Origin: an uncultured delta proteobacterium
Lineage (GTDB): Bacteria > Myxococcota_A > UBA9160 > SMWR01
Reading direction: 5' to 3'
Length of the DNA stretch: 64,000 nt
Assembly: GCA_963832165.1 (NCBI GenBank)
Contig: CAWHTE010000003.1
Coordinates: 192,001-256,000, forward strand
Made by a program: the position numbers and the translations under genes. Below the pieces are notes generated by a model that was not told the DNA's origin, made no database searches, and worked only from the letters and a program-made list of their open reading frames with translations. Shown in pieces: positions 57,150 to 57,341 of this stretch; positions within the stretch are counted from its first letter, which is position 1; every line of letters starts with the position of its first letter.

Positions 57150-57341
57150 GCCGGGGTGGTTGGCTTGCTGCGGCGAAATAAAGCGGAGCCGGCCACGGGC
57201 CGTCGCAGGGCTCGTGGCACCTTGGGTTGGACCGGCAACCTGAAAGCCTGAAGCCATCGCTGGCTTCGGACCCTTCGGGCGAGAGAGAACGTCACCCCCA
57301 GGCCGGCGAGCCATGAGCCGCAGCAAGCCAACCACCCCGGC
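57150..57341. ncRNA. Candidate structured non-coding element closed by perfect 25-bp inverted repeat
   Basis: GCCGGGGTGGTTGGCTTGCTGCGGC (57150-57174) is the exact reverse complement of 57317-57341; several internal hairpins; family not recognised. Confidence 0.5.

Follow-up and report, generated by a model that had tools for sequence, protein, structure and literature searches.

Introduction

REP, BIME and REPIN sequences are gene-less intergenic repeats that occupy convergent or downstream positions and have variable borders; they are built on an imperfect hairpin with a fixed mismatch and occur as inverted doublets and tandem arrays (accessible sections of PMC3333891, PMC3116915 and PMC3733652). 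Their units measure 20–40 nt. E. coli TnpA-REP depends on the GTAG tag and on a mismatch in the stem. Its cuts fall at CT within a region of more than 400 nt surrounding a BIME, it joins the strands and it can build tandem copies; the carrying of flanking DNA has been proposed (PMC3333891, same sections). A second described class comprises bacterial MITEs mobilised in trans by a cognate IS, such as Nezha, Chunjie, NEMIS, RUP and bcr1 (accessible part of PMC3184786). As far as their available text extends, PMC3733652, PMC3184786, PMC3116915 and PMC9330008 describe these kinds of repeat and not the family reported here, of which no description was found in open-access full text.

The locus under study lies in a 64,000-nt stretch of DNA (the window) from the genome assembly G000, which comprises 5.5 Mb and is 89% complete. 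A preliminary description of the window had singled out a 192-nt hairpin and offered four readings of it: a novel ncRNA, a 6S-like RNA, an orphan retron-like msr-msd or a MITE. It missed that the hairpin is multicopy and that the repeated unit begins about 205 bp further left, with a second hairpin. We conclude that the flagged hairpin is almost certainly one half of a dispersed, non-autonomous repeat, and a candidate new RNA gene is thereby replaced by an uncatalogued repeat family. One conserved hairpin module appears to travel in two modes, as an IS1380-type MITE with a known transposase and as a ragged REP-like mosaic, and the two modes offer a natural comparison for how REP/BIME-like repeats arise and spread.

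Results

The features of the locus are as follows, in window coordinates.

55803–56827, minus strand: neighbouring gene, MTA/SAH nucleosidase-like, split over three reading frames (ORFs; PF01048 in two pieces)
56941–56949, plus strand: ATTCCGCGG, vestigial 3′ tail of a REP of the GTAG type (ATTCC tail comparison)
56944–57345, plus strand: whole repeated unit of ~400 bp, made up of REP-tail remnant, M1, spacer and M2 (blastn)
56963–57104, no strand: hairpin M1 (type A), 142 nt, with arms at 56963–56983 and 57082–57104 (fold)
57105–57149, no strand: spacer, the most variable part among copies, with a slipping hexamer in one or two extra units (8 type-A copies aligned)
57150–57341, plus strand: hairpin M2, the 192-nt element of the preliminary description (fold; covariance-model match at 57157–57334, 99 bits)
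57150–57174, plus strand: left arm of M2, 25 bp (exact sequence comparison)
57173–57194, plus strand: left family signature GCGAA-N4-AGCG(G/C)AG-CC with inner stem strand (invariant alignment columns; 156 hairpins)
57195–57300, no strand: apex of M2, three to four small hairpins (alignments)
57301–57318, plus strand: right family signature (G)GCGAGCCAT(GA/TC)GC (invariant alignment columns; 156 hairpins)
57317–57341, plus strand: right arm of M2, 25 bp (exact sequence comparison)
57342–57357, plus strand: ragged right tail, common to some copies only (copy alignment)
57387–59069, minus strand: neighbouring acyl-CoA synthetase gene (PF00501 and PF13193 over cut-off)

The anatomy first described for M2 was confirmed. 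The sequence at 57150–57174 is the exact reverse complement of that at 57317–57341, and the pairing stops at 25 bp, with T/C on the outer side and G/A on the inner side. The A-rich bubble lies where it had been placed (left loop at 57175, right loop at 57308), and the inner hairpins were found as claimed (57192/57209, 57225/57236, 57250 and 57271). Both strands of the proposed inner stem are present, GCCGGCC at 57188 and GGCCGGC at 57301, but full pairing alongside the first hairpin is impossible, since GCCGGCC and that hairpin share three bases (57192–57194); the minimum-energy fold retains a 4-bp inner stem. The predicted folding energy is −121.8 kcal/mol for the plus strand (z −9.38) and −117.8 kcal/mol for the minus strand (z −7.69), each lower than in all 200 dinucleotide shuffles. 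Five of the seven perfect inverted repeats listed genome-wide (at least 25 bp, spacer at most 300 bp) are copies of M2. A long perfect inverted repeat near a contig start, at G000:C7:3136-3480, is not related to the M2 family.

As had been stated, M2 sits in the largest intergenic gap of the window (about 56827–57387; the next measures 499 bp, both from codon-model gene calls, and a nominal 1201-bp gap is not counted as a rival because it contains a piece of a frameshifted gene). The stop codon of the acyl-CoA synthetase gene is 45 bp from M2. On the other side, the nucleosidase-like gene has a signal-peptide-like start and two frameshifts and is either a pseudogene or the product of a long-read assembly error.

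The copy-number check by BLASTN gave the outcome expected of a mobile repeat: G000 holds 11 near-full copies of M2, with pairwise identities of 96.7–99.5%. What is copied extends beyond the 25-bp arms on both sides, with borders that are ragged by some 10–20 bp. Seven other copies align to the window unit over 387–423 bp at 94–96% identity (blastn), and in three further copies the alignment begins at 57082, their M1 being of a variant form (type B); M1 is of type A in 8 of the 11 unit copies and of type B in 3. Adding copies that consist of M1 alone, of a collapsed M2 or of half an M2 brings the total to 18 loci. The apex of M2 is near-identical among the G000 copies and freely variable over the wider family. 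The right arm of M1 is a degenerate copy of the left family signature (local alignment score 38, against a maximum of 30 in 3000 base shuffles), and this resemblance to the left signature of M2 suggests that both halves derive from one family. No gene was found inside the unit by the codon model, and merely GC-rich shadow ORFs overlap it.

The left end of the unit is linked to REPs. A GTAGGGC tag lies 22–50 bp ahead of M1 in 4 of the 8 type-A copies, and only a REP tail is found there in 2 more, the window copy included; ATTCC is the commonest tail among complete REP hairpins (5 of 33). All 3 full type-B copies are without the GTAG tag, and neither M1 nor M2 has a tag of its own. A terminal inverted repeat was not found at the unit borders, where the inverted match of a copy's own ends scores 5.36 versus 5.38 for mismatched pairs, and no direct repeat beyond chance accompanies the 11 copies (permutation p 0.88; best fixed register 3/11), in agreement with the reported absence of a target-site duplication at M2. 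The MITE reading thus stands as far as a multicopy, gene-less mobile repeat is concerned and falls with regard to the 25-bp arms, which are not transposon ends, and to the lack of a target duplication. Contigs from four of 24 listed sequencing runs contain fragments of the unit (one corresponds to 56939–57281 with 15 differing letters), and neither an empty site nor an excision product was seen.

Copies are concentrated at gene ends. Gaps between convergent genes hold 8 of the 11 copies versus a background of 314 in 2934 gaps (10.7%; p 2e-6), and 12 of the 18 loci when solo, collapsed and half copies are included; these orientation counts rest on codon-model gene calls made in this analysis. 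Most unit copies lie less than 50 bp from a stop codon.

Homologues of M2 and covariation among them were both found. In relatives the arms differ and the fixed core consists of a left part, GCGAA-N3/4-AGCG(C/G)AGC, and a right part, GCGAGCCAT(TC/GA)GC, about 30 fixed bases in all. This sharply defined signature could be used as bait for a binding protein. Covariance-model searches of the bacterial family recovered the core in 22 of 44 genomes, at 1–43 copies each; of 121 genomes sampled over the phylum, 8 carry it, all of the same order. In this model, 6 inner pairs are one column off and 18 correct, and its searches may miss weak matches. The core is also present in the Myxococcota MAG records L066, L074 and L117. 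A two-gap pattern recovered only 3 of 193 genomes of the order and one of the G000 copies because its allowed gap was too short, and a pattern for M1 of type B recovered 2 of 193. A scan of genome contigs with the left signature gave 11 family members among 80 loci listed, the rest being chance matches, and one core pattern had 0 matches in viral contigs.

In the core alignment 93% of paired cells are complementary under the corrected structure and 14 of 25 pairs show changes on both sides; none of 500 shuffles equalled this pairing and covariation, and slid controls were 35–45% paired, the shuffle result not being a probability, as the 21 sequences are related. Template switching can yield covariation in long palindromes without selection. 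The unpaired parts of the signature place G-N-A opposite G-A or G-N-A, and these fixed loops may form sheared G.A pairs.

The richest genome, G016, carries 43 core copies of constant core length, including tandem arrays of whole or half units and inverted doublets. Its arms are 74% identical between copies and pair at 92% within a copy versus 70% across copies (23 of the 43 copies); its apex shows 59% identity at constant length (18 gap-free rows). In some G016 copies the apex is replaced by another common repeat. Of 17 pairs listed, 5 represent loci that strains or species have in common along with both flanks, the other 12 being paralogues, tandem copies or pairs with one shared flank. In these 5, the signature differs at 3 of 198 positions, an underestimate given that the signature served to retrieve the copies, the arms at 17 of 240, the apex at 70 of 308 and the mostly coding flanks at 140 of 1721. 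One G016 pair has no change in arms and signature and 13 changes in 66 apex positions. A hypermutating apex was entertained as an explanation but discarded: in the one clean pair, the neighbouring intergenic DNA has changed about as fast. Inverted core pairs 1.1–1.4 kb apart were also considered as transposase-flanking repeats and rejected, as they enclose host genes. In L385, L386 and L387 (G085, G081 and G083) such inverted pairs flank single genes for secreted-looking proteins, and the same gene family is found in this position in two species.

A sister subfamily carries the core in a different vehicle. In G031, G018, G079 and G030 and in many metagenome contigs, the core lies within an element of ~210 bp that has sharp ends, CCCYGATCCGACAT, and YTAR-like flanks. 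Exact 4-bp direct repeats adjoin 30 of 70 such shelled elements (shuffled mean 9.2, maximum 18), and direct repeats of 3, 5 or 6 bp adjoin 0 of the 70. The 14-bp ends are identical to those of autonomous IS1380-family elements: two 1.54-kb elements, G046:C106:1-1555 and G137:C131:9811-11347, share these ends and have CTAG at either side, their full transposases score 205.7 and 203.8 bits against the NF033539 cut-off of 180 and exceed that of PF13701 too, and single ends of this type precede related genes in G064, G191 and G014. An IS1380-family clade with 14-bp ends and CTAG targets is present in the order (G046:C106, G137:C131 and G025:C120, the last as L439). By eye, the G046 element looks like the outer shell of the MITE at its right end; the core is without a counterpart in the IS body, to which blastn-short gave end matches and chance 11-mers only. 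Shells of 56–58 bp without a core also occur. Among 156 distinct hairpins collected, in a sample that over-represents the shelled subfamily because of the pattern used for searching, 69 have both shell ends, 32 one and 55 none. Within the shell, the core of family B faces one way in 62 and the other in 7 of 87 cases, 18 being unassigned.

These shelled elements have all the marks of MITEs mobilised in trans (PMC3184786, accessible part): terminal repeats identical to those of an IS, a 4-bp duplication, non-coding content and a stable fold. Judged by its sequence, the sister subfamily is a true MITE, apparently mobilised in trans by an IS1380-family element. Since most genera carry unshelled cores, the IS1380 shell probably captured the core rather than the reverse.

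In the genome of the window the corresponding parts were sought and not found: G000 yielded no IS1380 transposase by tblastn, nor did 7 other genomes from its genus yield one, and CCCYGATCCGACAT-type ends were not found in G000. The G000 flanks were also compared with eroded IS1380 shells, and this candidate was rejected, 0 of 10 copies scoring above the 95th percentile of random convergent gaps. A partial survey of other IS families in G000 gave nothing over cut-off for PF05598 (IS1182/IS5-type) or PF01609 (IS4/IS5-type). The proposed search for a transposase with ends matching M2 was therefore negative for IS1380 and covers other families in part.

Several comparisons bear on whether the hairpin acts as DNA or RNA and on which strand. 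In tandem gene contexts the core is sense in 12 and antisense in 16 cases (p 0.57), and isolated arm mismatches on the core strand are G-T in 32 versus A-C in 8, counts that include kin and are not independent. An orientation indifferent to transcription, together with the G-T excess, points to a strand-specific fold that is not tied to transcription, and is consistent with a fold that has its role on a single strand of the DNA regardless of transcription. The asymmetry is not uniform, with G-T 186 versus A-C 193 in family-B consensus pairs and G-T 60 versus A-C 44 in the TIRs. The fold of the alignment is marginally more stable on the opposite strand, and no link is apparent between core orientation and local GC skew, which is weak.

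In G000 a single RAYT passes the NCBIfam cut-off, and a further 11 matches are Y1-like. The RAYT gene (G000:C4:535459-535773, L036) is flanked by GTAG REPs of a type whose start is matched 113 times genome-wide. Another GTAG REP type is matched 48 times, and the REP adjoining M1 differs from the type that flanks the RAYT gene. The core was found within ~1.5 kb of a transposase gene at 0 of 68 loci, 36 of them Y1, and the flanks of the Y1 and IS110 genes listed for G000 show no likeness to the unit by eye. Y1 matches occur in 11 of 22 core-positive versus 6 of 22 core-negative genomes, and G016 with its 43 core copies has no Y1 match, the genomes in both cases being incomplete. About 11 divergent Y1/RAYT-like genes of ~235 aa in G000 (L035, L037–L042) fall below the RAYT cut-off and are without REP flanks; their loci include G000:C2:485363, C3:3415, C3:44062, C3:96625, C1:102477, C6:7737 and C11:918011 among others. 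The Y1-like genes of G000 often lie near short GAGGGAAG/CTTCCCTC-type hairpins, and Y1/RAYT-like matches are numerous in several genomes of the family. Of eight repeat clusters listed for G000, a larger one spans 197 intergenic regions with GCGAAGC-type mini-hairpins.

The RNA readings of the preliminary description fared poorly. Eleven copies, few bases from stop codons and with no promoter-like site found for M2, speak against a novel independent ncRNA. M2 shares with retron msr-msd and 6S RNA a long closing stem, an asymmetric purine-rich bubble and a size of 190 nt, and its 25-bp arms recall the a1/a2-type repeat that closes an msr-msd. Unlike a retron, however, it is multicopy and no reverse transcriptase was found with it: RVT_1 has no match in the 89%-complete G000 or in G031, G018 and G081, and the RVT_1 matches in G016 and G033 look, on our own reading, like group II intron enzymes, with no core nearby. 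Whereas 6S RNA occurs in one or two copies per genome, M2 has 11, and the window gave no match to RF00013 or any other Rfam family at gathering score, only two chance matches at E 6–8. RF00013 finds no 6S RNA anywhere in G000, where this RNA is either divergent or absent from the assembly. As for IS110/IS1111 guide RNAs, no loop-target complementarity was found in G016 and family B, where apices match the flanks of their own copy no better than those of others (p 0.73, n = 15; p 0.86, n = 81), and the core is not at the 68 transposase loci.

Discussion

Our preferred reading, to which we assign a probability of roughly one half, is that the unit is a REP/BIME-like mosaic repeat, copied as folded ssDNA by a REP-type Y1/HUH transposase acting in trans. 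The unit is like REPs, BIMEs and REPINs, as portrayed in the accessible sections of the papers cited above, in being gene-less, intergenic, convergent or downstream in position and variable in its borders, its family is like them in the imperfect hairpin with a fixed mismatch, the inverted doublets and the tandem arrays, and half of the type-A copies have a GTAG REP at the left end. It differs from them in that its hairpins measure 140–190 nt, M2 has no GTAG tag, copies number only 1–43 per genome, and the repeat was not found flanking any RAYT gene.

In the mechanism that we propose, a Y1/HUH enzyme encoded elsewhere in the genome would cut and rejoin the folded strand, with the fixed loops of the signature as a putative binding site. 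The type-A unit would have arisen by fusion behind a GTAG REP, its copies probably descending from a common REP–M1 fusion, and RAYT cutting at loose sites around the REP could produce the ragged ends. Behaviour such as that of TnpA-REP would explain the REP-headed unit, the ragged ends and the tandem arrays of G016. Several results weigh against this route: no core near the 68 transposase loci, Y1 genes that track the core poorly, no GTAG tag on type-B units or M2, a REP beside M1 unlike the type at the RAYT gene, a strand asymmetry that is not uniform, and no empty site or excision product. Copies may survive at gene ends because they are harmless there, and they may act on transcript 3′ ends.

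The positions at stop codons also suit a reading that we consider rather unlikely, in which the unit is an element kept by the host at 3′ ends (a transcript stabiliser, a terminator, a site bound by a host protein or a buffer where convergent genes meet) and spread slowly by recombination and gene conversion between copies, without a dedicated transposase. At shared loci the apex has changed more than the signature and the arms, and 3′-end roles of this sort are described for REPs and MITEs (accessible sections of PMC3733652 and PMC3184786). However, the conservation of the signature is inflated by signature-based retrieval, and the transcript carries the reverse complement of the core in 16 of 28 tandem contexts, that of the window included. 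There is one weak terminator-like site against a shuffled mean of 0.4, and 11 copies that are 97–99% identical at unrelated loci need a copying route. A host-kept role at 3′ ends is compatible with RAYT-type copying as preferred above.

It is unlikely that the unit is instead a worn-down IS1380-family MITE, for which a DDE transposase would have bound CCCYGATCCGACAT ends and duplicated YTAR before the ends decayed. The same core does lie inside such ends in 69 of the 156 hairpins and beside one end in 32 more, the shelled copies show 30 of 70 exact duplications and share identical ends with autonomous elements, and in G030 the shell surrounds a core with the right-signature variant of G000. 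Like an IS-family MITE, the window unit is multicopy, short and without a transposase gene, but it lacks terminal repeats and a duplication. G000 has neither an IS1380 transposase nor shell ends nor a shell remnant, and no such transposase was found in the genus sample. Slow decay alone cannot have removed both ends, because the copies are 97–99% identical inside, and for recent spread the decayed-MITE reading is largely refuted.

A different enzyme altogether would be required if the signature hairpin were a portable, structure-defined site for neither RAYT nor the IS1380 transposase, conserved throughout a Myxococcota order, an attC-like site outside integrons that spreads alone, is under selection at gene ends and hitch-hikes in an IS1380 shell or a GTAG REP mosaic; we regard this as decidedly unlikely. 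Integron attC sites are alike in design, with paired variable arms, a variable apex, a fixed asymmetry and a favoured strand. M2 differs in being without the RYYYAAC/GTTRRRY order at its ends (by eye, against the attC consensus) and in being flanked by ordinary host genes that often face each other. No integron integrase over cut-off was found in G000, and the core is absent near four integrase loci. By eye, five intergenic sequences of G000, at C2:369582-371664 and in four related gaps, are attC-like.

An RNA-based origin, in which every copy would be, or descend from, an RNA with its own transcription (6S-like, retron msr-msd or IS110-type guide) and would have spread through that RNA, is very improbable: the very stable fold, the covariation, the a1/a2-like arms and the msDNA-like dispersed repeats in Nannocystis named in titles cited by PMC6868368 (accessible part) speak for it, and against it stand the results on Rfam, promoter-like sites, RVT_1 and apex-flank matches given above and, in family B, the occurrence of both core orientations within the shell. 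In a relative, Rfam gave plant and viral microRNA hairpin models, far below their cut-offs.
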